Shown in pieces: positions 3,531 through 28,486 of a stretch of 64,000 nt of DNA. The position numbers and the translations under genes were made by a program. The notes under the pieces are model-generated. The model was not told the DNA's origin and did no database searches. It worked only from the letters and a program-made list of their open reading frames with translations. The stretch comes from a virus (lineage: Duplodnaviria; Heunggongvirae; Uroviricota; Caudoviricetes). How positions within the stretch are numbered: position 1 is the first letter of the stretch; every line of letters begins with the position of its first letter. The stretch is taken from positions 27,981 to 91,980 of the IMG/VR virus record IMGVR_UViG_2579778606_000002. The stretch is one strand, 5' to 3'.

Positions 3531-3562
3531 GTGTTAGAAAATTAAGCTAGCTTTTAGCTCAC
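3531..3562. promoter_or_regulatory. Operator-like half-site GTGTTAGAAAA plus degenerate second arm
   Basis: Same half-site as the 32-bp palindromes; overlaps 3' end of 3559..4557 and lies upstream of 2397..3359. Confidence 0.35.
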
Positions 3563-4557
3563 ATCCTCTTAGACACAAAGATCAGCGGAGTCACCGTCTT
3601 GTTCTCTTTCACCGGTATTTCTTGTTGTTTATTGGCTGATATTGGCAGACCATAAGTGGCATTAGCCCCCAGGGATTCAAGCATCGCTGCGACAATGCGT
3701 GCATCATCCTCTGACTGCATACGGCAGAGCGCCCGGCGCTGTTCTGCGCTGATAAAAACAGGCATTTCCTGGATAGCATCACGCAAAATACGGCGGCATT
3801 TCTTCGCGTTCTCCCCCTGGCTTTCCATCATCGCGGCCTGGTCGCGTAGTTTGTCGCGAAGCTGCATATTTTCCACTTCAAGATGTATCAGTTCCGACTC
3901 CAGAACTTCACGTTGTGCTGATTCGAATATGGCTTGCTGACTCTTCATTGCTGAAAAGTGGTGAACCAGATCCGTAGCAGCATTATCGGTAAAACCTTGT
4001 TCGATAAGTGCCGCATGAATCGCCGCGTCGCGTTCTTCTGCTGATTCAAGCATCAGGCTTTTCTTGTCGAGGCTGATATAGTTAGGCACAGTTACGTAAT
4101 CAAAACCGTGAAAAGACTTTACCAGGGATACAGAGTAATCTGGACCAGATGTAGCCCATGACCAACCACCTGCGCCAGAATTAATCATACCCTGAACAAT
4201 ACGTCCGGTGTCCGTATCCAGTATTTCCTGTGTATGGGTAACAATGCCGTTGTCGTCAATTGAAATGTCGATAGTCCTGTTTGACGGCACGTTCTCCAAT
4301 ACAACAGGCTTCCCATCTACCATCACAACAGAGACTTCCGGCAAGTCCAGGCTTTTCGTTTTGTTATAGTGCATCGCCCGGCGACCATGACCGTAATAAC
4401 CATACATCTCACCCAGTGCGATACGCTCTTTTGTTTCTGGCGAGTTGAATGTGTCTCGTACCGACTGGATAACGTAATTGCGATTGTTCTGAGGTGTGTG
4501 TTTGCGGATTTTCTCTACCAGGGAGAAGCGATCCGTAACGGTATTCAGTGATTGCAT
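3559..4557 (-). CDS. Putative head processing/scaffold protein (position of P1 pro)
   Basis: 332-aa ORF directly downstream of portal-like gene; coiled-coil-rich C-terminal half; function by position only. Confidence 0.3.
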   Translation of the reverse strand: MQSLNTVTDRFSLVEKIRKHTPQNNRNYVIQSVRDTFNSPETKERIALGEMYGYYGHGRRAMHYNKTKSLDLPEVSVVMVDGKPVVLENVPSNRTIDISIDDNGIVTHTQEILDTDTGRIVQGMINSGAGGWSWATSGPDYSVSLVKSFHGFDYVTVPNYISLDKKSLMLESAEERDAAIHAALIEQGFTDNAATDLVHHFSAMKSQQAIFESAQREVLESELIHLEVENMQLRDKLRDQAAMMESQGENAKKCRRILRDAIQEMPVFISAEQRRALCRMQSEDDARIVAAMLESLGANATYGLPISANKQQEIPVKENKTVTPLIFVSKRM

Positions 4558-6256: not shown

Positions 6257-6439
6257 GAGTCACCGCGAAATGTTTTCAGTTTGCGGCAGCATAGTCAGTA
6301 TGTGATTTTTGATGATGGATCTTTTCAACTAGAAATATTGGCTGGCCCCTCTCGTAACAAAGTGAAGAATAAAACTTGAATATGCACATTGTGCGTATTA
6401 AGATTAAAAAAGTTGACCACTTTGCTGCGGAGAAATTCC

Positions 6440-6742
6440 ATGAAAAGCTCTTTAATTAACTCCAAATTACACCAACTTGCTATCAAAAATCGAGTTCCTG
6501 CATGGTCGGTTTACATGCATATCAGCCACGCATGTCTGAGCAATGAAAACATTTACAATCTGCAAATTCTAAGCCGGGAAGGCAGGACTTTGTTTAGCGT
6601 TGCAGAGGATTCCTATAAGGCCTGGGATATGCTGGATGACGCGTTAAGCCAATACGCGCAAACAGAAGAATGCCAAAAAGAATGGGCCAGGTACTGTGAT
6701 GAAGGGATGCCATGCTGCGGTCTGTTCGGCGCAGCTCTGTGA
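6440..6742 (+). CDS. Hypothetical 100-aa protein, candidate toxin partner of downstream HTH protein
   Basis: ATG at 6440 with GGAG RBS; opposite strand to flanking operons; no recognisable family. Confidence 0.45.
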   Translation: MKSSLINSKLHQLAIKNRVPAWSVYMHISHACLSNENIYNLQILSREGRTLFSVAEDSYKAWDMLDDALSQYAQTEECQKEWARYCDEGMPCCGLFGAAL

Positions 6743-6754
6743 ATCGATTCAACG

Positions 6755-7018
6755 ATGATATACTTCGTTGCGAATCACAGCATTGGCAAAGGGCATATTG
6801 TGAAACAACTCCCACCAAACACCCCGGAAACCATAATTGAAATCCGCCAGCGAATGGGGCTAACGCAAACGGAGTTAGCCCACAAAATGGGGTATCAACT
6901 CCGGGCTTGGCAATTCAAAGAAGATAGAAATAAACCGAGACGCCTTATGGCTGGTGAATTTGAGTACCTGTTATTGCTTGCTGGAGAGCATCCTGAATTT
7001 ATTCTTACACCACGCTAA
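6755..7018 (+). CDS. XRE/COG2944-like HTH DNA-binding protein (HigA/MqsA-type antitoxin-like)
   Basis: Motif ETIIEIRQRMGLTQTELAHKMGYQLRAWQ..KP matches short HTH antitoxins/regulators; 12 nt after upstream ORF. Confidence 0.55.
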   Translation: MIYFVANHSIGKGHIVKQLPPNTPETIIEIRQRMGLTQTELAHKMGYQLRAWQFKEDRNKPRRLMAGEFEYLLLLAGEHPEFILTPR

Positions 7019-7039
7019 AAAAACCCGCCTGACGGCGGG
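7016..7039 (-). terminator. Rho-independent terminator (CCCGCC-tgac-GGCGGG with A7 on plus = U7 on minus)
   Basis: Hairpin and homopolymer tract seen directly between the convergent genes ending at 7018 (+) and 7053 (-). Confidence 0.6.
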
Positions 7040-7052
7040 ATTATCAATCATA

Positions 7053-7346
7053 TCAATTCACATCAATGTCTTGATATGATTCGCCAGTATCGTCTTCGTC
7101 GTCAGGATCTCCTTCCACCTCTGGCCACTCAACCTCCCAGCCAACAGTTTCCAGGCTCCGCAGAACAAACACCCCATCGGCATGAATGGTATTCACGATC
7201 CCCATTGCGGAATTTGTGTTGATAAAGCGTAAATCTTGCGCAATATTTTCTTCCGAAATATCGCCTTCAAATATACGCAATGTGCCGTCATCAGAGCATT
7301 CAACAATCCCTCTAATCCCAGCGGGACTCACAATGCTATACTTCAT
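7053..7346 (-). CDS. Small acidic hypothetical protein (C-terminal DPDDEDDTGESYQDIDVN)
   Basis: 97-aa ORF overlapping the end of the 1013-aa gene; last gene before terminator. Confidence 0.5.
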   Translation of the reverse strand: MKYSIVSPAGIRGIVECSDDGTLRIFEGDISEENIAQDLRFINTNSAMGIVNTIHADGVFVLRSLETVGWEVEWPEVEGDPDDEDDTGESYQDIDVN

Positions 7347-10300
7347 TTTGCAACTCCTTCATACATCCCAAGAAAAATTCCAGCACGCCGTCATTGTTTA
7401 ATACAGAGTTAGTCGCCTGCTCAGGATCGGCATACATCTGCAAGGCCATAGAAAAAATCTCAGTCGCCCTGCAATTGCTTAATGCAGGTGGCTTTGATAT
7501 AAATCTGCCGCTGACAGAACTTACCGTATTTTCCATATAAATTTTAGACATATATCCATGACTTAGGTCGGTTCGCACCAAATACTCAGCACTGCCACGG
7601 CTACCAATATTATGATAAAAAACTTTACCGTTAGTTTTTGATTTAATGAAGGCTTTGGCCCTCTCCAATAGATGGGGATTTGAATGTTCTATATGGTGAC
7701 CTATTTCATGCCATAATACACGCTCGTGATCACTATTAGCATCAATTGTTATATTCCCATTTCGACTTGCAAAAGCACGAACATTGTTCTTGTGGTTAAT
7801 ATTTTTTAATGTAGATAAAGTCCCTCCTGAAATAATATAGGCTTTTTCAATTGTCTCGCGAATACTGTATGCTTTACGGGAGAAAGTTTCATTATCGTGA
7901 CCACTTAACTGCTCTGCTTCATCAGAAATAGCAATCCCACGACTCCATTCCTTAGACTGGTCATGTGACACATTTGACGATTCAAGAATCATGTCAAATG
8001 CGGCTCTGACTTTTTTATGTACTACATTTTCAAGCGCATTAGGATAGGCTTTTTGTCCACGTGTTAATGAAGCTATTTCATATAATTCTGCTTGCAAGTC
8101 TTCCGGTATGTCCAGATTAAAAACAAGCATTTTTTTCAGTTCATATCCAATCCCATGATCATTCTGGTGCAAAACCTCAGCAAGGTAGTCAGTGAGTTTT
8201 TCCTTATTTGACCTAACTTTATTGATTTGTTCTATAGTAAAGTCAACGCGCTCCTTGATTCCGTAATATGAGGAATGCTCTGCTAATTCCACTATCTCCT
8301 TAAGCCTGACAAGTGTCTCAATATACGCATCAGCGATCTCCTCTGCCGTTAGTTCGGAGCTAACTCCGACGCTGGCTGTTATTTCCCTACCAGCCGCCAT
8401 AATATCGTTGATATTATGCAAGCTCTTTTTGAATAACTTCAAAGTATTTTGGATTATGCGCACCATCTCTTCTGCGCTTCCAGCTTTATTCATTTCCTTT
8501 CTAAATCTTAAAGCTGTTTTCTCTGCAATAGACGCTGGAGATTTTAAATAGTTACCTAACCAAACAAGACAACCATTGCGCAATTCATCAATGCTAAAGT
8601 CATCAGGAATATGTTTTGCTGCATTATGTAAAACACGTATAAATTGTTCAGCGGGCACGCCTTCTTCTGACATATTGCAAAACGTTTCAATGTCACAATC
8701 AATATTTCTTTCATCTGCGAGTGAAGGAGCTTCATCTCCTTTTTCAATCGCGTCACGCAGTGCGTTAGCATAAAAATTGCTGCGTTGATAAGACAATAAC
8801 ATCGTTGTTAACACAGCGTTGCTGTATCCATAACGTTTAGCCCACGCCTTAATCTCATTAACGGTGACATTGCGAATATAAAAACCAAGTTCCAAAAATA
8901 CATTGCGCTTTATTTTTTTTGCGGACTCCTTAATTTTTTCTGACGCCTTCACGATTCGGATCAAGTCCTCCACGCTGGTCGCATCAGCAATTAGCTTTGA
9001 AATGTATGGTTCGACATCTCCCGAAACCGATTCGAACATGGCGAAATTAAGCCCTTTACCTTCGCCATACTCAGCCTCAATTTCATCAGAAACGGCAGAT
9101 AAAATGCTACGCAGATCGACATCTCCGCCGCCGAACATATCGCCTAACGCTTGTTGCTGGTGAATAAGTTCATCGTTAATTTTTTGCGCCAGTTTCTTGA
9201 AAGCTGCCCCCATTCGCTTAGCGCTTCGGTTGTTGGCAACAATAAACAGAGCAAGCGCTTCTGCTTCCGGAGTGCTATCTCCAAACAATCCACGCTGTGC
9301 GATCACCTCTTCTACTGCCTGACCGTTATCTTTTGCTTCACGAACAAGGTTAATTGCTTCCTGTAGCGCGGCAATAGCCTGTTTATCCAGACCATTCAAT
9401 TGCTCTATACCGTCTACCAGTCCGGTTACCGTGTCATGGTGAACATCACCTGAAAGCGACTGCATTTGCGCAAAATCGCTGGCTGCCGTATTTAATGCGG
9501 TAAGGATGTTACGCATTTCCGGATCTGGCTCTTCCGCCACCAACCGAACAAGCCTTTCATCCTTGTACGCTTTGGCAAAAATTGCATTCTGGATGCGGTC
9601 GATAAGTTGTTTCGTTGGACGCCCATCGGCTGTAAGCAAACCTGCCGTCGCCGTATCACCTATTTCGCGCAAAAACGCACGAATAAACGCATCATTGGAC
9701 CGCGCCAGTAGATTCCCATCATCTGAAGGATTAAATAGCGCCATGACGCTCTCAGTGAGAAATTGCGCATCCGCATACGCTTTTTCACTTGCAGCCATCT
9801 CTTGCAGATCGCTGATGTTTGAATCGCGGGCGAACTGCGCACGATCAACATCAGTGAGTCTTTCGCGCACCAATACGGGCATAGACATTTGTGAAATGTC
9901 GTCAGGATTCAGACCAAACTCTTTTGCATGATCGATCAGGTACTGGCGATATTCATCCGCCTGCCCTTGCTCATAGGCACGCCAGATACCCATGCTCCTT
10001 CCGTTGCCGGATTCAACAACGTTGTCCGGACCAACTATCGGCGCTCCGTGGCTGCTCATGCCGGAATCCGTTAATTGTGCCGGGCGTAAATTGGAGGCAA
10101 TACGGTTAACCTGGAGTTTGCTGGATAGCCGTGTACGGTCACGTGGCTGGAGTTCTTCCGGGAAGGCCGGATTAATCGTACCGTCAAGGTTGTTCGAAAT
10201 GATCAGACTGCTGGCATCAACGACCTTAAAAGCCGTCTTTACCTCTGCCCCTTTACTGGTGACTACGTAACTACTGCGCCCCTGGCGTGTTTCTCGCCTC

Positions 10301-10377
10301 TCTAATGAAGAAACCAGCGCAATAACACTGTTAATGTCTGCTGCTTCGGATAGCGCGGAAGTAACTGACTTGTTCAA
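7336..10377 (-). CDS. Large multidomain protein with C-terminal zincin-like HEIGH motif (position of P1 ddrB)
   Basis: 1013-aa ORF; WHEIGHHIEH near C-terminus; last large gene of the lydA-lydB-hdf-darA-ddrA-like block. Confidence 0.55.
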   Translation of the reverse strand: MNKSVTSALSEAADINSVIALVSSLERRETRQGRSSYVVTSKGAEVKTAFKVVDASSLIISNNLDGTINPAFPEELQPRDRTRLSSKLQVNRIASNLRPAQLTDSGMSSHGAPIVGPDNVVESGNGRSMGIWRAYEQGQADEYRQYLIDHAKEFGLNPDDISQMSMPVLVRERLTDVDRAQFARDSNISDLQEMAASEKAYADAQFLTESVMALFNPSDDGNLLARSNDAFIRAFLREIGDTATAGLLTADGRPTKQLIDRIQNAIFAKAYKDERLVRLVAEEPDPEMRNILTALNTAASDFAQMQSLSGDVHHDTVTGLVDGIEQLNGLDKQAIAALQEAINLVREAKDNGQAVEEVIAQRGLFGDSTPEAEALALFIVANNRSAKRMGAAFKKLAQKINDELIHQQQALGDMFGGGDVDLRSILSAVSDEIEAEYGEGKGLNFAMFESVSGDVEPYISKLIADATSVEDLIRIVKASEKIKESAKKIKRNVFLELGFYIRNVTVNEIKAWAKRYGYSNAVLTTMLLSYQRSNFYANALRDAIEKGDEAPSLADERNIDCDIETFCNMSEEGVPAEQFIRVLHNAAKHIPDDFSIDELRNGCLVWLGNYLKSPASIAEKTALRFRKEMNKAGSAEEMVRIIQNTLKLFKKSLHNINDIMAAGREITASVGVSSELTAEEIADAYIETLVRLKEIVELAEHSSYYGIKERVDFTIEQINKVRSNKEKLTDYLAEVLHQNDHGIGYELKKMLVFNLDIPEDLQAELYEIASLTRGQKAYPNALENVVHKKVRAAFDMILESSNVSHDQSKEWSRGIAISDEAEQLSGHDNETFSRKAYSIRETIEKAYIISGGTLSTLKNINHKNNVRAFASRNGNITIDANSDHERVLWHEIGHHIEHSNPHLLERAKAFIKSKTNGKVFYHNIGSRGSAEYLVRTDLSHGYMSKIYMENTVSSVSGRFISKPPALSNCRATEIFSMALQMYADPEQATNSVLNNDGVLEFFLGCMKELQNEV

Positions 10378-10470
10378 AATACACTCCCCTTACATAGAAA
10401 GCAGGAAGTGTAAAAAGTGTGTGATTTATGGACTTACAGGAAAGTGAAAGGGGCATTTCAGCCCCTTTGA

Positions 10471-10839
10471 TTACCCTGCATAACCGTTGGCTTTCACCCA
10501 GCTTATGGTCTGCTCTTTAGCCTGTTCCAACGTAAGGAACTCGCCTACATAGTTTGAGATCCCACGTAGCGCATCAATAAATTCCATTTGCGTGGACTTT
10601 GTGAATGCACCTCCAAGGAAGTCTGTCACTATCTTAGGAATGTCACCTGCAACAGTATCTGGCTGCGCCTGCGGATCCGATACTGATTGGGCCGCAGCCC
10701 CAAGCCCCAGTTTAAGCATCACATCAACAATCTGCTTACCAATTGAGACGCGTTGCAATACTGGCGCGGTTTTCTGCGCCTGCATTAAATCTGATAGCTC
10801 TTTACCCAATTTCAGACGGTCTAAAACAGAGATAGTCAT
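10471..10839 (-). CDS. Hypothetical protein (position of P1 ddrA)
   Basis: 122-aa ORF between the 641-aa and 1013-aa genes. Confidence 0.45.
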   Translation of the reverse strand: MTISVLDRLKLGKELSDLMQAQKTAPVLQRVSIGKQIVDVMLKLGLGAAAQSVSDPQAQPDTVAGDIPKIVTDFLGGAFTKSTQMEFIDALRGISNYVGEFLTLEQAKEQTISWVKANGYAG

Positions 10840-12764
10840 TAAGCACCTCCCTGCTGAATTTCAGCCAGAATGTTGATCAGGTAGTCAACTGCTGCGCCAA
10901 CCGTTGCTTCGTTCTCGTCATATCGACCAGCACTGATAAGAGCGTTTGCAGCTTCCTGCACATGATCAAGTTCAGCACTTATGACCGTCAGATCGCGGGA
11001 TGTGAACTGCTCCGGAACGGATTTCAGGTACTCAAGCGCTTTATCTGCTTCCTGGTCAGCTTCGCTTGCTGATTCACCCGCTTCTTCTGGCTCCGGCTCC
11101 TGTTCTGGTGCTGGTGCAGGTTGCGATTCTGGCTCAACTACAGGATCTGTTTTTACTTCGCTTGAATGATTTTGAAGGGCGTTATACACGTCCATAATGA
11201 AAAGGTTCTCCCCATCACCAAGTGGATATGCCACGTTCGGGAACGCTTTGCGGAAAAGAATTTTAACTTGCGCCTTGAATGTTTTCAGGTCACTTCCAAA
11301 CAGATCTACATAGCCATCAATATGTTTTACCATGCTGGACGCAACCAGCTCGTTCGCCATCCCTCTCAGTTCATCGTCATCAGGCAGATAGCGTAATTCG
11401 TACTGACTGACTTCTTCGTCTGTCAGTTTGCGGTCATACGTAATGATTCCGTGACGAGCATATTCGTAATACGGATCAGCCTGATCAGGACGGTCAAGTA
11501 CAGCTTTATTTCCTTCAGGAACCGCACCAACACCCGCCGGGCGAGATTGTAGCGCATAGCGATATTTACCAACCTCCAGGGGATCAGGATGTGATGCTGG
11601 TTGTGGCTCCTGTTCAGGCTGCGGCTGATCAGTTGGCTCAGGCTGGCCCGGCAACACATCCACTTTGTATTGATCAGCATTATGTTCACGATAGGCTTTA
11701 AGTAATTTGGTTGCAGCGTCCGCTGAACTCCCACCTTTAACAGCACTGACATCAATACTGAAATTGCCTTCTGGTGCCTCAATCGTGACAAAGCTATCAC
11801 TGCCTGACGTGACATACTTAACTACAGCACCATTATCCAGCGTTGTTTGGCCTTCTGTAGCAAGATTATGTTTTATGTGTCGCAGTTGATCATTGAAGGC
11901 ACGCTCTTTAGTTCCTTGGCTCTTAGCTGACAATAAATTATCGCGCTTAGCCTGCAATTCCGCGTTAAGGGCTTTTTGTGCGTCTAATTTATTCTGCATA
12001 TCATTGAGTGTTGAGCGTTTCTCTGCCAGCCCCCGCTGTGCGTCTTCAACCTGCTCAATCAGCACAGAACGTTCTTCTGCCAGCTTGTCGGCTTCATTGA
12101 GATACCCCTCAATATCAGCCTTCATTTTGTCCTGGCGCTCCTTTGCTTTTTTGAATTTTGCACTGTTACGCTCAATGAGGTTAGAAAGCGCCTGACACAC
12201 CTGGCTCAGAGATACATCACGCCCACCGATTGGCGCAACAACATGCGTAACGTTTCTTTTGTTAAGAAGAAACTGAAACGCAACCAGCTCGTCATCCCCT
12301 TTAATTCTTGTGCCGTCTGCGGTTGGAGAATGGAAAATTATGCTTGTCGTTTGTCCATCGGTTAGAGGTATTTGTGCTGTTACAACAGGGATATTAGCAA
12401 CCCGGCGCACGCGCCCAATGATTGCCCCACCGATACTATTACGTCCGTCTTCATATTCACCTGCCTCATCCGTACCCGCAGCAATGTCAGTGCCATTCAG
12501 GCCGCGATTAAGCGCCCGGACAAATGCTCGCATTGTTTGCGCTAACCGCAATTTTGTTGTGGTTAAAGCTTCGAACATTGCCTCATTGGTAGTTACCAAA
12601 ATTTCGTTGCCCATATAGGCCAGCTCGATATCTTCCAGCGTCGCAGGCTCGATAAGTAAATCATCCTCGGTGATATCTTCCGCCACCCAACGATTAGGCG
12701 TATATCCAGTGAGCGTATCTGCAAAAGTGGACTGGATATTTATTCGAATAGGTTTCTTTATCAT
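10839..12764 (-). CDS. Putative virion internal/anti-restriction protein (DarA-like by size and position)
   Basis: 641-aa ORF with central coiled coil and Pro/Glu-rich acidic segments; assignment positional. Confidence 0.35.
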   Translation of the reverse strand: MIKKPIRINIQSTFADTLTGYTPNRWVAEDITEDDLLIEPATLEDIELAYMGNEILVTTNEAMFEALTTTKLRLAQTMRAFVRALNRGLNGTDIAAGTDEAGEYEDGRNSIGGAIIGRVRRVANIPVVTAQIPLTDGQTTSIIFHSPTADGTRIKGDDELVAFQFLLNKRNVTHVVAPIGGRDVSLSQVCQALSNLIERNSAKFKKAKERQDKMKADIEGYLNEADKLAEERSVLIEQVEDAQRGLAEKRSTLNDMQNKLDAQKALNAELQAKRDNLLSAKSQGTKERAFNDQLRHIKHNLATEGQTTLDNGAVVKYVTSGSDSFVTIEAPEGNFSIDVSAVKGGSSADAATKLLKAYREHNADQYKVDVLPGQPEPTDQPQPEQEPQPASHPDPLEVGKYRYALQSRPAGVGAVPEGNKAVLDRPDQADPYYEYARHGIITYDRKLTDEEVSQYELRYLPDDDELRGMANELVASSMVKHIDGYVDLFGSDLKTFKAQVKILFRKAFPNVAYPLGDGENLFIMDVYNALQNHSSEVKTDPVVEPESQPAPAPEQEPEPEEAGESASEADQEADKALEYLKSVPEQFTSRDLTVISAELDHVQEAANALISAGRYDENEATVGAAVDYLINILAEIQQGGA

Positions 12765-13402
12765 GCATCTTCCTCCAGGCGCGCTATTTCTTCTTTCAAT
12801 ACGCGAGTTTTCGCCAGTTCCTGCGCCATCTCGGTTCTAATGATTTCAGTTTCTCTTGTTGCGCGGTCTGAATTACCTTGCACCTGATTTAATTTTTCTT
12901 TGGCCCTTTCAATATCCTCGCTGATCGCATCGCGAGATTCCTTTGCCTCTGCTAGTTTCTGCGCATTGGACTTAACGCCTTTTATTTTCTTATTCCCATC
13001 ATCAATATCTTTCGCCGCACGAGCTAACTTACGCGCCAATGATTTCTGAAATGATGATGCGCCTTTATTAAATAAAGCAGCCAGTGATTGCCCTAAAGCC
13101 ATCAGCGTTTTAACTGGCTTGAAAGGAACAATTTTTCCGTTCAGTTTTACACCAGAAATATCACCAGTATCATTAACCTGAACGTCCATCGTCTGCTCAT
13201 CGATTCCGATAAGGGTAAACGTGCGCGTCATGATCCCGTCTTTCTTCCTGCCATTACTGGCGGGGATCACCCTCGCTATCTTGTAGCCTCCTTTACCGAT
13301 TTCTTTGACGAGTTTTGCCAGCCCCTTTTCGTTTAACTCATCATAATTAAGAAGAACATAATTAGATTTATTTGACATTCCAGTCTCCTTCACACTTTTC
13401 AA
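12761..13402 (-). CDS. Hypothetical coiled-coil protein (Hdf-like position)
   Basis: 213-aa ORF overlapping the next gene by 4 nt; C-terminal coiled coil. Confidence 0.4.
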   Translation of the reverse strand: MKSVKETGMSNKSNYVLLNYDELNEKGLAKLVKEIGKGGYKIARVIPASNGRKKDGIMTRTFTLIGIDEQTMDVQVNDTGDISGVKLNGKIVPFKPVKTLMALGQSLAALFNKGASSFQKSLARKLARAAKDIDDGNKKIKGVKSNAQKLAEAKESRDAISEDIERAKEKLNQVQGNSDRATRETEIIRTEMAQELAKTRVLKEEIARLEEDA

Positions 13403-13814
13403 TCATAAACTGACGTTCTATGCAGTCATTGATAGGGAAAATGCGATAAAGCGGATTCAGGCGGCAATTACCGTTAGTCAATGTGACCTTTAGATCCCAC
13501 TTCGCTGGCTCAAGATATTTCGTGTCGATGAGCAAATATTCTTCTCTCTCACCGCGTTTTGATGCGTCAACTGGTCTTGTTTTCCCCGAAATAACCACAG
13601 ATGGATTTTTCAAGTCCTGCAACCAATATTCGATTTGTGCATTGCTTACCCAGCTTCGCTTAACGCGAAGCGACACGGGAAACGCTATAGCAGACTCTTT
13701 CACTACAGCTTCGCCAATGCTCAAAATATCAACACTCTTGCGACGAAATAAGAAACGGTCAATAACGGCAACAAATGCCATGATAAAAATGAAATAATTT
13801 CCAAAGTCACCCAT
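13368..13814 (-). CDS. Putative lysis regulator (LydB-like position) with N-terminal hydrophobic segment
   Basis: 148-aa ORF immediately after the holin-like gene; N-terminal FIFIMAFVAVI helix. Confidence 0.35.
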   Translation of the reverse strand: MGDFGNYFIFIMAFVAVIDRFLFRRKSVDILSIGEAVVKESAIAFPVSLRVKRSWVSNAQIEYWLQDLKNPSVVISGKTRPVDASKRGEREEYLLIDTKYLEPAKWDLKVTLTNGNCRLNPLYRIFPINDCIERQFMIEKCEGDWNVK

Positions 13815-14140
13815 TACTTCTCTCCACCTTTTCCCCCACTCGCTATTACGCTTAAGAGATTCAAGACGTTACTAGCTCTGGACTTCAAGCCCTGTAAAAT
13901 TTCACTTCCGTTGTTACTGGCAATCAGAACAACGCAGTAAATGATGCCTTCCGGCCATTCATAGCTATCAGCCACCCAAAACCCCGCAAGCCCGGCAGTT
14001 ACTGCAGTAAACAATTCACTCGCGAGGTTGAGCAGTGACGCAGAAATGCGCCCGTCTCTAACTCCGAGAAGGAATACGCCGGTTCCACTCAGCAGGGATG
14101 TTATGACTGCTACAGCCAGATTTTCATAATCTGCAAACAT
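13814..14140 (-). CDS. Putative holin (LydA-like), multi-pass membrane protein
   Basis: 108-aa ORF with hydrophobic helices (LAVAVITSLLSGTGVFLLGV; AVTAGLAGFWVA; IIYCVVLIA) and charged C-terminus. Confidence 0.45.
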   Translation of the reverse strand: MFADYENLAVAVITSLLSGTGVFLLGVRDGRISASLLNLASELFTAVTAGLAGFWVADSYEWPEGIIYCVVLIASNNGSEILQGLKSRASNVLNLLSVIASGGKGGEK

Positions 14141-15054: not shown

Positions 15055-18000
15055 TTAATACCCATAAGCAACATACTGTGCATATATTTTATCAGTGGAG
15101 CTACTTTTCACTGTAAAACCAGTGGCTGAGTGGTTGTATGTATAAAGAATTGAATTGACAGCATTCCCGCTGTGAGGCGAAATCACAACTACCGCACACG
15201 CCTCAGGAAAAGCAGTCGGAAATTTAACCACGCTTCCTGGAGTTAAATTTGTTATAAACCCCCACTGCATCATCACCTTAGTTGATGTATCCTTATGCCA
15301 TCCATGAATGTTGGCATATGCTGTGTTTTTAGCCTGATATTTCGTGTTGAAATTACTATAGTTACCAGGGGTAATCTGACCAGCGGCAGATAAATTCCCC
15401 ATAACCCTTACATGACCATCAGCACGTCCTAATTCTACGCGACCATCACCGCCATCTATCTTTAATGGAGTGTAAACGACATCACCATTAACATTTTGCC
15501 CAGTGGTTGATATCTGGAAACTATATCCAGTATTAGTTATTAGGAATCCATAGTTATTATTATAAGTTAGGCGTATAGCATTTTGGCTGCTGGATATAAT
15601 TTCACCGGTAACAGTACCACCTGTTGTTGGTAACGCACCAACATGACTTGCCGTTAATCTGATGTCTGCAGAACCATCAAAAGCCACTCCACTTATTTTT
15701 CTGGCAGTTTTTAACTTTGTCGCTGTAGCTGCATTACCACTTGTATTTTGATTTCCGGCAATATTAACGCCCGGAAGATTGATGTTTGCTGTACCATCAA
15801 ACGAAACCCCGCCGATTGTGCGTGCCGTCTGAAGTTTCGTTGCAGTTGCAGCATTGCCGGTAGTGCTCTGATTACCTGTTTTATTCACGCCCGGCAGGTC
15901 GATATTGGCACTACCATCAAATGACACCCCGCCGATTGTGCGTACTGTTTGCAGTTTTGTTGCAGTTGCAGCATTACCGTTCAAACTACCATTGATGCCG
16001 CCAGTAACATTGAGTCCATTACCGATCGTAACAGCACCATTGGCATTGTTAATGATAAGCGGCCTTAACCTATTATAGGTTCCAAGATTGTCACCCGAGG
16101 CGGTCAACATGAAATATGTGTTTGAACCATCGTTTCGGATAAAGAATCCGTAGTTTCCGTAGGCAATGCGCAGACCATTCACCGATCTTGAAATGATCTC
16201 ACCAGTAGCCGTTAAACCGCCGTTGAGATTTCCTCCGGTTATTGGTAATGCGCCGACATCCGTGGCGGTCGGTTTAATGTGCGAACTGTAAATTACATAT
16301 ACAGTTCCATCTGTCAGACCTGTTGGTTTATTCGCTGTATAAGATGGTGATGTATGAATCGTTACGCTGGCGTTACTGGTATAATCCCACTGAATATTAA
16401 CACGTGTGGTGAAATTACCTATTTCAACATAAACATCATAGGTATCACCGGATGTATTCACCCATGCAAAATTAGTAAATCCAACCGATGTCCGTCGCCA
16501 TAACGCACCAGAAAGACCTTTTGGATTCCCATTTCCCGCACGAAGAACAAGTTCAGATATACCAGCCTGCATAGGGGAGTTAACATTATATCCAGAACCA
16601 CCAATCAGGCTTATGTAAACCACGGAACTGGACTGTGGCATGGTTACAGTTGCCAGCTTGAACCATCCAGTACCACCACTAAAAGACATTGTTGTTGAGT
16701 TGATCGTGCCTATAGACCTTGGAGTTAGCTCAATGTTTTTAGAACCGTCAAACAACACCCCATTTATAGTTCTAGCGGTTTGTAACTTGGTCGCTGTCGC
16801 TGCATTACCGGATGTATTCTGATTACCCGCAACGTTAACACCAGGTAAATTAATATTCGCAGTACCATCAAAGCTAACTCCGCCGATAGTTCTTGCCGTC
16901 TGTAGTTTTGTAGCAGTTGCTGCATTGCCAGTTGTATTCTGATTGCCAGTGGCATTCACACCAGGAATGGAGTCCCTTGATGTATATACCTGCGCCCACG
17001 CTGACCATGCCGCATCAGTGTGATCTCTTCGGGAGCGAATGAAAACCGGCGCATGTGCACCGCTCGTACCACTCCAGCCAATAAGCAACTCGCCCTCACC
17101 AGCAGCACTCGCACCTTTCATGTGCAATACGTTGCCATACGCGGTCGGGTAGCTATTGTTGTACGCCTCATACATCTGCAATCCAGTAGCAGCACCTTGT
17201 GTTGTATCGGTGAGCGCAGTAACACGCCCTCTGGACGTAATTGTTGGTATCGAAATGTTCGCAGAGCCATCAAACTTAACACCGTTGATTGTGCGTGCTG
17301 TTTGCAGTTTTGTTGCAGTTGCAGCATTGCCGGTAGTGCTCTGATTACCTGCTTTATTCACGCCCGGCAGGTCGATATTGGCACTACCATCAAATGACAC
17401 CCCGCCGATTGTGCGTACTGTTTGCAGTTTCGTAGCGGTTGCAGCATTGCCGGTAGTGCTCTGATTACCTGCTTTATTCACGCCCGGCAGGTCGATATTG
17501 GCACTACCATCGAACGACACTCCGCCGATCGTTCGAGCTGTCTTGAGCTTTGTGGCAGTATCTGCGTTTCCCGTCAAATTACCAGTAATACCACCGCCAA
17601 CTTTTACGCCGTTACCGATGGACACCAACCCAGTTCTTAAGTTTATAGAAAATGGTCTTAATGGCCCGATGTCACCATTTTCACCCTCCCCTTCATTTGT
17701 CGGGATAAGATGAAGAGATTCCTCGGATCTCCTGAAGATAAGGCCAAAGTCCTGGTTAAATATTCGAAGCGCATTTATTGTGCCAATTTTTAGCTGCCCC
17801 CCCATTGTGTCGCCAGAACGCTGAACTGCGTTACCAGCTTGAGAAGCAATATCCGTTAAGCCAAGATCTTCCGGAGTCAGAGTAATATCTGCCGACCCAT
17901 CAAATGCCACACCGTTAATCTTTCTGGCTGTTTTTAATTTCGTCGCAGTATCGGCGTTCCCGGTCAGCGTACCAGTGATCCCCGCGCTGAAAGTCTGGCG

Positions 18001-19275
18001 TGCACTCCAGGTATTAGCTGTGCTCAACAGGGGGAGCTTTTCTCCGCTGGTTCCGAGTTCTCTTAAACCAAGGTATTGGATAACAGCCAGCGTGCTTGTT
18101 TTAGCAAGAATATCGCGACCGACTGACGTTAAATCAGTCTGGGCTACAGTGTCTGTTCCGGTAAAGTACGGTAATTTATTTGCCCCCGTCGCCAGGCCAG
18201 CGAGCGCGGTTAAGGTTGCGTCGAGAGGCTGCTTACCTGCCAGGGCATTTGTCATTGTAGTCGCAAAGTTCGGGTCATTGCCCAGCGCCGCAGCAAGCTC
18301 ATTAAGAGTATCAAGAGCTTCTGGTGATGAGCCGACCAATGCAGAAATAGCGGCACGAACATAAGCGGTTGTTGCAATCTGAGTGTTGTTCGTACCTTGT
18401 GACGCCGTAGGAGCTGTTGGAACCCCCGTAAATGCCGGGCTTAATAACGGCGCTTTAAGAGCTAAAGCATCATTAATCGTCTGGCTAAACTGGGGATCAT
18501 TGTTTATTGCATCTGCAATTTTTTTCAGCGTATCCAACGCTGAAGGAGAACCATCAATAAGGGCGGTTATAGCGGCCTGAACAAAGGCAGCGTTTGCGAT
18601 TTGTGTACTGTTTGTACCTTGTTCCGGAGTTGGAGATGTAGGGACACCTATAAATTCCGGGCTATCAACCGGAGCTTTAAGTTTATTTAACGTGCTGATA
18701 GCAAGTGGGGTTGCAGCTTTATATTCTTCGTCACTATCCAAAGCACTGGAGAACTCAACACCTACAGCACGATTAGCGCGATATTTAGTGCTAATCATAT
18801 CTGCGGTGACGGCTTGAGCATTGTCAGGCACGATCACTCGGCATAGCTCAATCTGGTTAGATGCTATGCCCTCATCAACGAGAGCTATAATTCTCGCTGC
18901 GCTAATATCCGATGAACTATCTACCTGGCTGGTTTTCACTCCATGTTCGTAATTAGCTTCAAGAACGATGATTGTCGTTACACCTGCTTCTACAGGAACA
19001 ACAACATCACTGACTTGCTGCACGGATATCTGACATTTACCCACGTCAACTGAAGCCGCCCCTCTTCCCTCTGTTTTCTCGGATGTAATCCGCACAAACA
19101 GGCCATCCCCTGGCACCGGTTCAAACCCACAGTACACACCGGGCAGAACGATATTTTTCATCTTCCTGTTTAGAGCTTCGGTGCTATACAGCTCAAAGTA
19201 TTGCATGTCTGCAATTAGTGGAGCGGAAATGTCCGAAGATAAGGTGACAATGTTCTTTACTTTATCTGCGCACAT
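15055..19275 (-). CDS. Tail fibre protein with tandem fibre repeats
   Basis: 1406-aa ORF; about 10 copies of G-N-(A/Q)-x-T-A-T-K-L-(Q/K)-T-(A/V)-R-T-I-G-G-V-S-F-D-G-S-A-N-I; followed by Tfa. Confidence 0.8.
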   Translation of the reverse strand: MCADKVKNIVTLSSDISAPLIADMQYFELYSTEALNRKMKNIVLPGVYCGFEPVPGDGLFVRITSEKTEGRGAASVDVGKCQISVQQVSDVVVPVEAGVTTIIVLEANYEHGVKTSQVDSSSDISAARIIALVDEGIASNQIELCRVIVPDNAQAVTADMISTKYRANRAVGVEFSSALDSDEEYKAATPLAISTLNKLKAPVDSPEFIGVPTSPTPEQGTNSTQIANAAFVQAAITALIDGSPSALDTLKKIADAINNDPQFSQTINDALALKAPLLSPAFTGVPTAPTASQGTNNTQIATTAYVRAAISALVGSSPEALDTLNELAAALGNDPNFATTMTNALAGKQPLDATLTALAGLATGANKLPYFTGTDTVAQTDLTSVGRDILAKTSTLAVIQYLGLRELGTSGEKLPLLSTANTWSARQTFSAGITGTLTGNADTATKLKTARKINGVAFDGSADITLTPEDLGLTDIASQAGNAVQRSGDTMGGQLKIGTINALRIFNQDFGLIFRRSEESLHLIPTNEGEGENGDIGPLRPFSINLRTGLVSIGNGVKVGGGITGNLTGNADTATKLKTARTIGGVSFDGSANIDLPGVNKAGNQSTTGNAATATKLQTVRTIGGVSFDGSANIDLPGVNKAGNQSTTGNAATATKLQTARTINGVKFDGSANISIPTITSRGRVTALTDTTQGAATGLQMYEAYNNSYPTAYGNVLHMKGASAAGEGELLIGWSGTSGAHAPVFIRSRRDHTDAAWSAWAQVYTSRDSIPGVNATGNQNTTGNAATATKLQTARTIGGVSFDGTANINLPGVNVAGNQNTSGNAATATKLQTARTINGVLFDGSKNIELTPRSIGTINSTTMSFSGGTGWFKLATVTMPQSSSVVYISLIGGSGYNVNSPMQAGISELVLRAGNGNPKGLSGALWRRTSVGFTNFAWVNTSGDTYDVYVEIGNFTTRVNIQWDYTSNASVTIHTSPSYTANKPTGLTDGTVYVIYSSHIKPTATDVGALPITGGNLNGGLTATGEIISRSVNGLRIAYGNYGFFIRNDGSNTYFMLTASGDNLGTYNRLRPLIINNANGAVTIGNGLNVTGGINGSLNGNAATATKLQTVRTIGGVSFDGSANIDLPGVNKTGNQSTTGNAATATKLQTARTIGGVSFDGTANINLPGVNIAGNQNTSGNAATATKLKTARKISGVAFDGSADIRLTASHVGALPTTGGTVTGEIISSSQNAIRLTYNNNYGFLITNTGYSFQISTTGQNVNGDVVYTPLKIDGGDGRVELGRADGHVRVMGNLSAAGQITPGNYSNFNTKYQAKNTAYANIHGWHKDTSTKVMMQWGFITNLTPGSVVKFPTAFPEACAVVVISPHSGNAVNSILYTYNHSATGFTVKSSSTDKIYAQYVAYGY
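15700..18000. repeat. Tandem near-identical DNA repeats (about 110-120 bp units) encoding tail-fibre repeat motifs
   Basis: Blocks such as gcattgccggtagtgctctgattacctg..ggcaggtcgatattggcactaccatcaaatgacac recur several times. Confidence 0.65.
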
Positions 19276-27601: not shown

Positions 27602-28486
27602 ATGGTAGATGACAAAAAAGGCTTTCTGAATGTTGAGGAAATATCAGGGAATACCGGAGAAATCCACAGCTTAAAGCCTAACAATAATAGTACTATTCAG
27701 CCGATAGCTTTGTTGCGGCTTGGGGTGTTTGTTCCCACATTGAAATCTACCAGTGTTGCTTTACGTCGCAAGAACGCCGGTTTAACTAACTCCACTGATG
27801 CGACAGAAGAGCTGTCCAGCCTGAAGATTGTAGAGCAGGAAGGGTATCAGGGTATTGAGATTCATGGTCCACGCCTGGATATGGATACTGATTTTAAGGT
27901 GTGGATAGGCATTACATCTGCATTGTTTGACTATAAACCAGATAATGATGGTGTGATCACCCTGACATTCTCTGAATTTGTGGATCGTTGCGGTTATCCA
28001 AGGAAGCGGCTGTCCAAGGCTTTTCGCAAGAGCATTGGCGACTCTCTAACGCGTATTCAGCAGACGTTGCTGAAGTTCAACTTGCCCACCAGCAAAGAAC
28101 ATGTTCGTTATATCCAGATGAATTTATTGGCATTTAGTGAACTTGATACTGAAAATGACATTATAAGAATCCAACCGCAGAAGCAGTTGTCTGAGTTGTA
28201 CTACGTTGACTATAAGCGAATATTGAAGCTCAAAATGCTCGATAAACTTGGCAGGAAAGAGACAGCCAAGGTGCTTTATACGTTTTTCGAAGCGTTACCT
28301 TCAAACCCTGCGCCAGTGAGTATTGAGCGCCTTCGTGCCAGATTGAACCTCAAGTCCTCGGTTAGCGTTCAGAACAGTGTGATTCGTAAAGCCATGAAAG
28401 ACTTAGAAGCTGTTGAATATCTTAAATTTTCAGAGATAAAGAATGGTCGGAAAATAGGTTTCCAGATCCATAAACGAAATCCATAA
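27602..28486 (+). CDS. repA: Plasmid replication initiator RepA (P1 RepA-like)
   Basis: 294-aa ORF with AAGGA RBS; segments QPIALLRLGVFVP and FFEALPSNPAPVSIERLRARL recall P1 RepA; iterons on both sides. Confidence 0.8.
   Translation: MVDDKKGFLNVEEISGNTGEIHSLKPNNNSTIQPIALLRLGVFVPTLKSTSVALRRKNAGLTNSTDATEELSSLKIVEQEGYQGIEIHGPRLDMDTDFKVWIGITSALFDYKPDNDGVITLTFSEFVDRCGYPRKRLSKAFRKSIGDSLTRIQQTLLKFNLPTSKEHVRYIQMNLLAFSELDTENDIIRIQPQKQLSELYYVDYKRILKLKMLDKLGRKETAKVLYTFFEALPSNPAPVSIERLRARLNLKSSVSVQNSVIRKAMKDLEAVEYLKFSEIKNGRKIGFQIHKRNP

Follow-up and report, generated by a model that had tools for sequence, protein, structure and literature searches.

The closest described relative of the gene pair studied here, ddrB and hxr in a 64,000-nt stretch of the IMG/VR virus record IMGVR_UViG_2579778606_000002 (Caudoviricetes; positions 27,981 to 91,980 of the record, the whole of which stretch we call the window), is the end of the darA (defence against restriction) operon of phage P1. 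The P1 GenBank record gives the order lydA-lydB-hdf-darA-ddrA-ddrB-hxr with an 11-nt overlap between hxr and ddrB, and annotates DdrB as a "possible metallopeptidase", Hxr as a "possible repressor; homolog of Xre" and DarA as proteolytically processed in head maturation. A 2013 survey placed the DdrB family among suspected zincins (PMC3650047), and Iyer et al. (2017) defined the DdrB-ParB domain and identified a C-terminal metallopeptidase (MPTase) domain (PMC5512222). In the published reading, P1 DdrB is trimmed to a product of about 76 kDa ahead of packaging; self-cleavage by the C-terminal MPTase has been proposed, and the packaged piece is predicted to be the N-terminal ParB fragment (PMC5512222). 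Proteomics of P1 virions located DdrB in the head (39 peptides, 59.5% coverage) and listed its role as aiding DarB addition; the supplement of that study contains no peptide-level DdrB data (PMC9024508). In a 2026 structural paper, DdrB takes part in the ordered loading of the Dar proteins after Hdf and DarA (PMC12810830), and Dar acts in cis on packaged DNA (PMC12707154). P1 phenotypes are cited here second-hand, through PMC12810830, PMC9024508 and PMC5512222.

Judged by sequence, the window belongs to a P1/D6-like phage-plasmid with a complete lydA-lydB-hdf-darA-ddrA-ddrB-hxr operon. We consider it probable that its ddrB and hxr genes close a darA late operon of the P1 type, carried by a D6-like phage-plasmid, and encode a three-part polyvalent head protein together with a partner protein, Hxr. 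For the window itself, the analysis shows orthology, domain layout, the zincin fold, the conservation of catalytic residues, and the fold and linkage of Hxr.

The DdrB orthologue and its metallopeptidase domain

Both open reading frames (ORFs) of the pair were confirmed where the original prediction had placed them, on the minus strand at 7336..10377 (1013 aa, 112 kDa) and 7053..7346 (97 aa). The 1013-aa protein aligns collinearly over its full length with P1 DdrB (44% identity over aa 4-1011, tblastn) and matches phrog_2299 from end to end (aa 12-1012 against positions 10-994 of the 995 in the profile). On these alignments it is a full-length orthologue, in a divergent copy, of P1 DdrB (P1_gp022, YP_006491.1), which sits between ddrA and hxr in the same operon slot, shares the DdrB-ParB N-terminal domain, likewise carries HExGH about 120 aa from its C-terminus and likewise overlaps hxr by 11 nt. 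Identity to the P1 protein falls from 61-66% in the N-terminal module to 23% in the middle and is 39% in the peptidase domain. The orthology lends support by analogy to the earlier suggestion of a virion protein, as DdrB is a head protein in P1 (PMC9024508). The gene starts, in a difference from P1, with TTG at 10377, seven bases past AGGGGAG at 10384-10390, which holds a GGGGAG ribosome-binding site. This start is credible because no in-frame methionine occurs ahead of aa 106 and the ParB domain begins at aa 42, and the homologous gene of D6 is annotated from the corresponding position. The DdrB-like ParB/Srx domain (aa 42-173, 9859..10254, minus strand; Pfam PF18763 ddrB-ParB, E 9.8e-42) includes R127, within ESGNGRSMG, which is invariant in an alignment of 38 sequences. 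On the plus strand at 9506-9931 runs an antisense ORF of 141 aa, the counterpart of P1 'iddB' (64% identity over 98 aa). This ORF is unlikely to be a gene, as it is rich in Ser, Arg and Ala and faces the best-conserved stretch of ddrB, of which its own conservation is probably a by-product.

The metallopeptidase signature that had first drawn attention to the protein, WHEIGHHIEH, lies at aa 889-898, about 120 aa from the C-terminus, with the HEIGH catalytic motif at aa 890-894 (7696..7710, minus strand). By a rough estimate, a single HExxH would occur by chance in a protein of this length with a frequency of about 3%. HExGH is found at the equivalent position in every homologue longer than 900 aa among 120 database matches, and is kept even in homologues with unrelated middle regions and in proteins of 1300-1500 aa with extra domains. 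Within the 38-sequence alignment, which reaches down to 33% identity, the H, E, G and H of the motif are invariant, the full set of invariant C-terminal residues being R867, A870, H890, E891, G893, H894, E897, E931, Y942, Y947, E973 and S976. Because of the equivalent position in all of the longer homologues and this invariance, the motif is not a chance occurrence. The predicted catalytic residues are H890, E891 and H894, and their invariance over 38 homologues argues for an active enzyme.

An AlphaFold2 (AF2) model of aa 700-1013, built from a 45-sequence alignment, is confident from aa 779 on, with blocks at a predicted local distance difference test score (pLDDT) of 91-98. A helix at 839-849 is followed by strands at 859-862, 869-871 and 875-878 and by the HEIGH-bearing helix at 885-899, which is the order required of a zincin fold, with the HExxH helix after a three-stranded sheet and an N-terminal helix. 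Beyond the HEIGH helix come a second helix, a beta-hairpin insert and a helix at 974-983 that starts at the invariant E973. The model places HEIGH in a zincin fold, as the original prediction had supposed, and we read aa 779-1013 (7339..8043, minus strand) as a predicted gluzincin-type metallopeptidase domain. Its third zinc ligand is probably E973; E897 and E931 are also invariant.

A domain search of the two halves of the protein, suggested together with the original prediction, succeeded for the N-terminal half through PF18763 and failed for the C-terminal half. For aa 780-1013 there was no Pfam family at E values up to 10 and no NCBIfam match; the PDB sequences gave no match for the C-terminal domain with either the single sequence or a profile, and a Foldseek search of the PDB with the domain model retrieved nothing. 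Membership of this copy in the zincin family therefore follows from orthology to P1 DdrB and from the fold, with no Pfam model detecting it. The domain is confirmed at the level of the predicted fold although curated sequence models miss it, and the lack of such a model is the reason why PGAP calls these ddrB genes "hypothetical".

The module junction and the linkage of Hxr

The DdrB protein of the window is divided into a conserved N-terminal module (aa 1-452, 9022..10377, minus strand), delimited by its identity to D6 orf25 and ending at an MFES motif, a fast-evolving helical middle region (aa 453-778, 8044..9021, minus strand) and the peptidase domain. Mean identity across lineages is 73% for the N-terminal module versus 28% for the middle region. 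The middle region shares 15-36% identity with the full-length homologues compared (the short D6 protein has no counterpart of it), and the peptidase domain 26-59% with its homologues. AF2 models aa 700-778 of the middle region as helices (pLDDT 56-67), and a profile search of PDB sequences with this region returned only weak matches to designed helical bundles.

D6 orf25, a short DdrB of 454 aa from the same kind of D6-like backbone, has 97-98% identity to the window protein over aa 1-452 and stops directly after MFES, without linker, peptidase or hxr and with the unrelated orf24 and orf23 next to it; at the DNA level, the first 1.3 kb of the ddrB gene of the window is 95% identical to D6. We collected 97 loci from genomes and IMG/VR, of which 70 carry an HExGH-bearing DdrB and 27 a short form consisting of the N-terminal module only. 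Short proteins of about 440-465 aa that end right after MFES were seen in L002 (phage D6), L007, L008, L010, L013, L016 and L029-L048. Such forms are common in D6-like and other phage-plasmids, and some of their N-terminal modules are 96-99% identical to that of the long form in the window. Other members of the family have different domains in place of the C-terminal half, for example PF18823 in Vibrio proteins of about 614 aa. Because D6 and 27/97 loci end at this point and other members exchange the C-terminal half, the sequences identify the vicinity of residue 452 as a natural module junction, as expected of a polyvalent protein.

The hxr gene (7053..7346, minus strand) starts at an ATG within the last codons of ddrB, with an overlap of 11 nt, behind a ribosome-binding site of its own, GAAGGAG. 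Its 97-aa product ends in PEVEGDPDDEDDTGESYQDIDVN; the last 23 residues hold 11 Asp or Glu and no Lys or Arg, in agreement with the Asp/Glu-rich tail described earlier, and the pI of the whole protein is 4.05. It is 41% identical to P1 Hxr over 80 aa (E 3e-16) and matches phrog_2292 (E 2e-39), and P1 Hxr (P1_gp021) has the same size, acidic tail and overlap with ddrB. By sequence it is thus a homologue of P1 Hxr, an identity that the original prediction had missed. In the AF2 model, a small alpha/beta core (pLDDT about 90) precedes a disordered acidic tail (below 50).

A profile of the Hxr family was scanned over all stop-to-stop ORFs of the 97 loci. An Hxr ORF overlapping the ddrB stop was found in 70/70 loci with an HExGH-bearing DdrB, versus none anywhere in the flanks of the 27 short-DdrB loci, two of which have less than 400 nt of downstream sequence. 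Clustered at 80% identity, the loci represent 12 lineages with HExGH-bearing DdrB and hxr and 6 lineages with short DdrB. Among the 12, Hxr identity is correlated with the identity of the peptidase domain (Spearman 0.84, Pearson 0.91), with a coefficient of 0.71 for the linker and 0.26 (Spearman) for the N-terminal module. The DdrB family therefore occurs in nature in two forms, a long one with peptidase and Hxr and a short one with the ParB module only.

The Hxr family is very small: an exhaustive profile search of 1.84 billion proteins yielded only 24 representative clusters. Its members stand alone at about 100 aa, save for one tandem duplication, and offer no informative fusions. The duplication is found in P0125 and P0126 (184-187 aa), in which each polypeptide has two Hxr domains. 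A long multi-stretch match to the Hxr profile, P0152, is a repetitive surface-type protein and looks spurious; the other three matches of this kind are presumed to be spurious as well. Three Logan contigs (L098, L099 and L101) encode distant DdrB-like polyvalent proteins of 1064-1509 aa that end in an HExGH domain, one of them combining PBECR2, InPase and ParB domains. Each is abutted by an acidic ORF of 90-127 aa with a G-x-EV motif, with an Amidase_2 gene next in two of the three. No homology of these small ORFs to Hxr could be detected (hmmsearch not significant, hhalign probability 0.13), which makes them positional analogues of Hxr only.

Proposed roles of the peptidase domain and of Hxr

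By analogy with P1, from which packaging, self-cleavage and phenotype are carried over, DdrB would be produced late and brought to the prohead through the Hdf/DarA scaffold. Its own metallopeptidase would then cut the chain near the linker to give a fragment of about 76 kDa, and the packaged, ParB-bearing fragment would be needed for the loading of DarB, which would enter with the DNA and shield it in cis from type I restriction (EcoB/EcoK). Hxr, translationally coupled to DdrB, would assist or restrain the peptidase half. We infer from the translational coupling, the strict co-occurrence and the co-divergence with the peptidase half that the C-terminal half of DdrB most likely has in Hxr a partner of its own, which may inhibit the peptidase, act as its chaperone or serve as a cofactor in assembly. 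The earlier guess of a chaperone or inhibitor is plausible and fits the co-occurrence and co-divergence. Tentatively, and with our judgement leaning somewhat against so specific a form, Hxr may be the cognate partner (inhibitor, immunity protein or chaperone) of the DdrB metallopeptidase. The hxr gene and the part of ddrB that encodes the C-terminal half would then make up a fast-evolving cassette of two genes, exchanged or lost as one piece at the MFES junction with the ParB module left constant.

Several points weigh against the main account, that of a self-cleaving DdrB with Hxr as its partner. Self-cleavage and the identity of the packaged fragment are proposals even in P1, whose own prohead protease Pro could cut DdrB, and E973 is a best guess for the third zinc ligand. 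Natural short DdrB, such as that of D6, has neither peptidase nor Hxr, so that the N-terminal module can fulfil at least some function without the C-terminal half. Both hxr and ddrB were non-essential in CRISPR interference screens of P1 (PMC10695390). Finally, the co-occurrence of Hxr with the C-terminal half could reflect mere inheritance as one recombination block.

Strict conservation of the catalytic residues, together with peptidase and middle regions that evolve fast, as an arms race would give, would also suit a peptidase domain that is packaged and injected and that cleaves a host restriction or defence protein such as type I HsdR/HsdS, the anti-defence effector of the original prediction. 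The closest folds are those of secreted toxin and effector proteases, namely anthrax lethal factor (LF) and the Pro-Pro endopeptidases PPEP-2 and PPEP-3. Iyer et al. explicitly keep such a role open for some MPTases (PMC5512222), and the 59.5% coverage of DdrB in P1 virions leaves room for C-terminal peptides (PMC9024508). However, the published reading for P1 is a cut before packaging, with DdrB reported in the particle as a 76-kDa fragment (about 700 aa) that is predicted to be the N-terminal, ParB-bearing one (PMC5512222), and the known role of ddrB is DarB loading (PMC9024508). The cis action of Dar (PMC12707154) fits shielding or escort better than a diffusible protease, and short DdrB without a peptidase is common in otherwise complete Dar operons. 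Because of the 76-kDa packaged species, the cis action of Dar and the common short forms, we favour an injected effector less than cleavage of DdrB itself; it is possible but unlikely, and this part of the original prediction is left unsupported.

We give a similarly low probability to a zincin domain that acts in trans in head assembly, by processing DarA or other Dar or head proteins, or that has a non-catalytic part in encapsidation, for which the MPTase region of the N4 virion RNA polymerase is a reported case. The annotation of DarA as processed during head maturation (P1 GenBank record), the fixed order of Dar loading (PMC12810830) and the N4 precedent (PMC5512222) are in line with such a role. 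On the other hand, P1-type phages already own a prohead protease, the T4 gp21-like Pro, which synteny with D6 places at 3559-4557 in the window, and D6-type phages with short DdrB keep darA and hdf. The invariant catalytic residues argue against a purely structural role.

Hxr itself might act on its own against restriction, as a small acidic protein that mimics DNA in the manner of Ocr/ArdA, or be a Dar component that is packaged, and not a peptidase partner. The pI of 4.05, the 11 acidic residues in the 23-residue tail and the location in a defence-against-restriction operon would suit this. Hxr is absent from the P1 virion list, which is weak evidence and counts little against a packaged Hxr because the expected tryptic peptides of P1 Hxr would span 22-40 residues. 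The coupling, co-occurrence and co-divergence with the peptidase half point to a peptidase partner instead, and we regard an independent role as quite doubtful. That Hxr is an Xre-like transcriptional repressor, as annotated in GenBank, is very improbable: only an old annotation in P1 speaks for it, which gives "homolog of Xre; 28 pct identical" for a stretch of about 58 aa, the predicted fold is alpha/beta and not the all-alpha, five-helix fold of a helix-turn-helix protein, and on this model the "Hxr repressor" label is probably wrong.

Operon setting and comparison with known systems

Searches with Pfam and PHROGs profiles named all genes of the block and bore out the likeness to the P1 darA operon, in order and sizes, on which the original prediction had relied. 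All lie on the minus strand, beginning with the lydA holin gene (13814-14140, 108 aa; phrog_1527 holin, E 1e-38) and lydB (13368-13814, 148 aa; Pfam LydB, E 1.5e-24). These are followed by hdf (12761..13402, 213 aa; phrog_1620 Hdf-like, E 6e-72, and Pfam DarA_N), darA (10839..12764, 641 aa; Pfam DarA_N, E 6.5e-40, and DarA_C, E 2.3e-19) and ddrA (10471..10839, 122 aa; phrog_1855 DdrA-like, E 7e-48), and then by ddrB and hxr. An intrinsic terminator read from the sequence, CCCGCC-GTCA-GGCGGG followed by seven T (7024..7039, minus strand), starts 13 nt past the hxr stop and marks the operon end; the ddrB-hxr pair therefore closes the transcription unit. A search for the P1 late-promoter -22/-10 pattern across the window gave chance-level matches only, none of them upstream of lydA. 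No ORF of the size of DarB (about 2250 aa) is present in the 64,000-nt window, the largest being one of 1406 aa at 15055-19275; from D6 synteny, darB would lie just past the left end of the window.

An intergenic stretch of 93 nt, versus 12 nt in P1, separates the ddrA stop (10471) from the ddrB start (10377). It contains a hairpin at 10447-10468 on the minus strand, AAAGGGGC-TGAAAT-GCCCCTTT, with a GC-rich 8-bp stem and a weak T tract after it (dG -15.1 kcal/mol; z -2.8 versus shuffles). The hairpin may set the dosage of ddrB and hxr, by terminating transcription in part or by stabilising the RNA. On the other side of hxr, between it and the portal gene, two small genes on the plus strand (6389-7018) are convergent on hxr, a 117-aa ORF without a family match and an 87-aa ORF with a weak HTH_3 match; the matching stretch of the E. 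coli plasmid pB2C_96 has a shorter, 54-aa coding sequence annotated as 'XRE family'. Since the slot 3' of hxr holds other cargo in D6 (orf24, orf23) and in P1 (isaB, IS1), the site between hxr and the portal gene is one of variable cargo.

Across the block, DNA identity to E. coli plasmids such as pB2C_96 is about 91%, and the 97-aa protein that they encode is identical; copies of the 1013-aa gene with 99-100% identity are found in pB2C_96 and in the IMG/VR contigs L018-L020. The value as a discovery is small. For P1, the architecture of DdrB, the suspected peptidase and the presence of the protein in virions have all been described, and the allele already occurs, unannotated, in public E. coli plasmids; the gene in the window is a rediscovery in a divergent allele. 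The new point is a small one, that Hxr is invariably found together with the protease half and has little resemblance to a repressor; the "Hxr repressor" annotation is thereby marked as probably wrong, and a testable reading is put in its place. The natural polymorphism of long versus short DdrB in near-identical D6-like backbones provides a ready comparison for the purpose of the peptidase.

Among described zincins, those of the MEROPS M34 type (anthrax LF, PPEP-2 and PPEP-3) share 11-13% sequence identity with the domain in the window, give no sequence-profile match and are not recovered by Foldseek; membership in M34 was rejected at the sequence level. The domain also differs from them in a long beta-hairpin insert between the two catalytic helices. 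The zincin-like MPTase core described by Iyer et al. consists of an N-terminal helix, a three-stranded sheet, the HExxH helix, a variable insert and a Glu-bearing helix, and an acidic residue three positions past HExxH is a feature of one phage-type clade (PMC5512222). The polyvalent-protein MPTases of that study (Iyer, Burroughs, Anand, de Souza and Aravind 2017) have the same core and motif as the domain of the window, in which E897 matches the acidic position and the insert precedes the Glu-bearing helix, and P1 DdrB is explicitly named as one of their members (PMC5512222).

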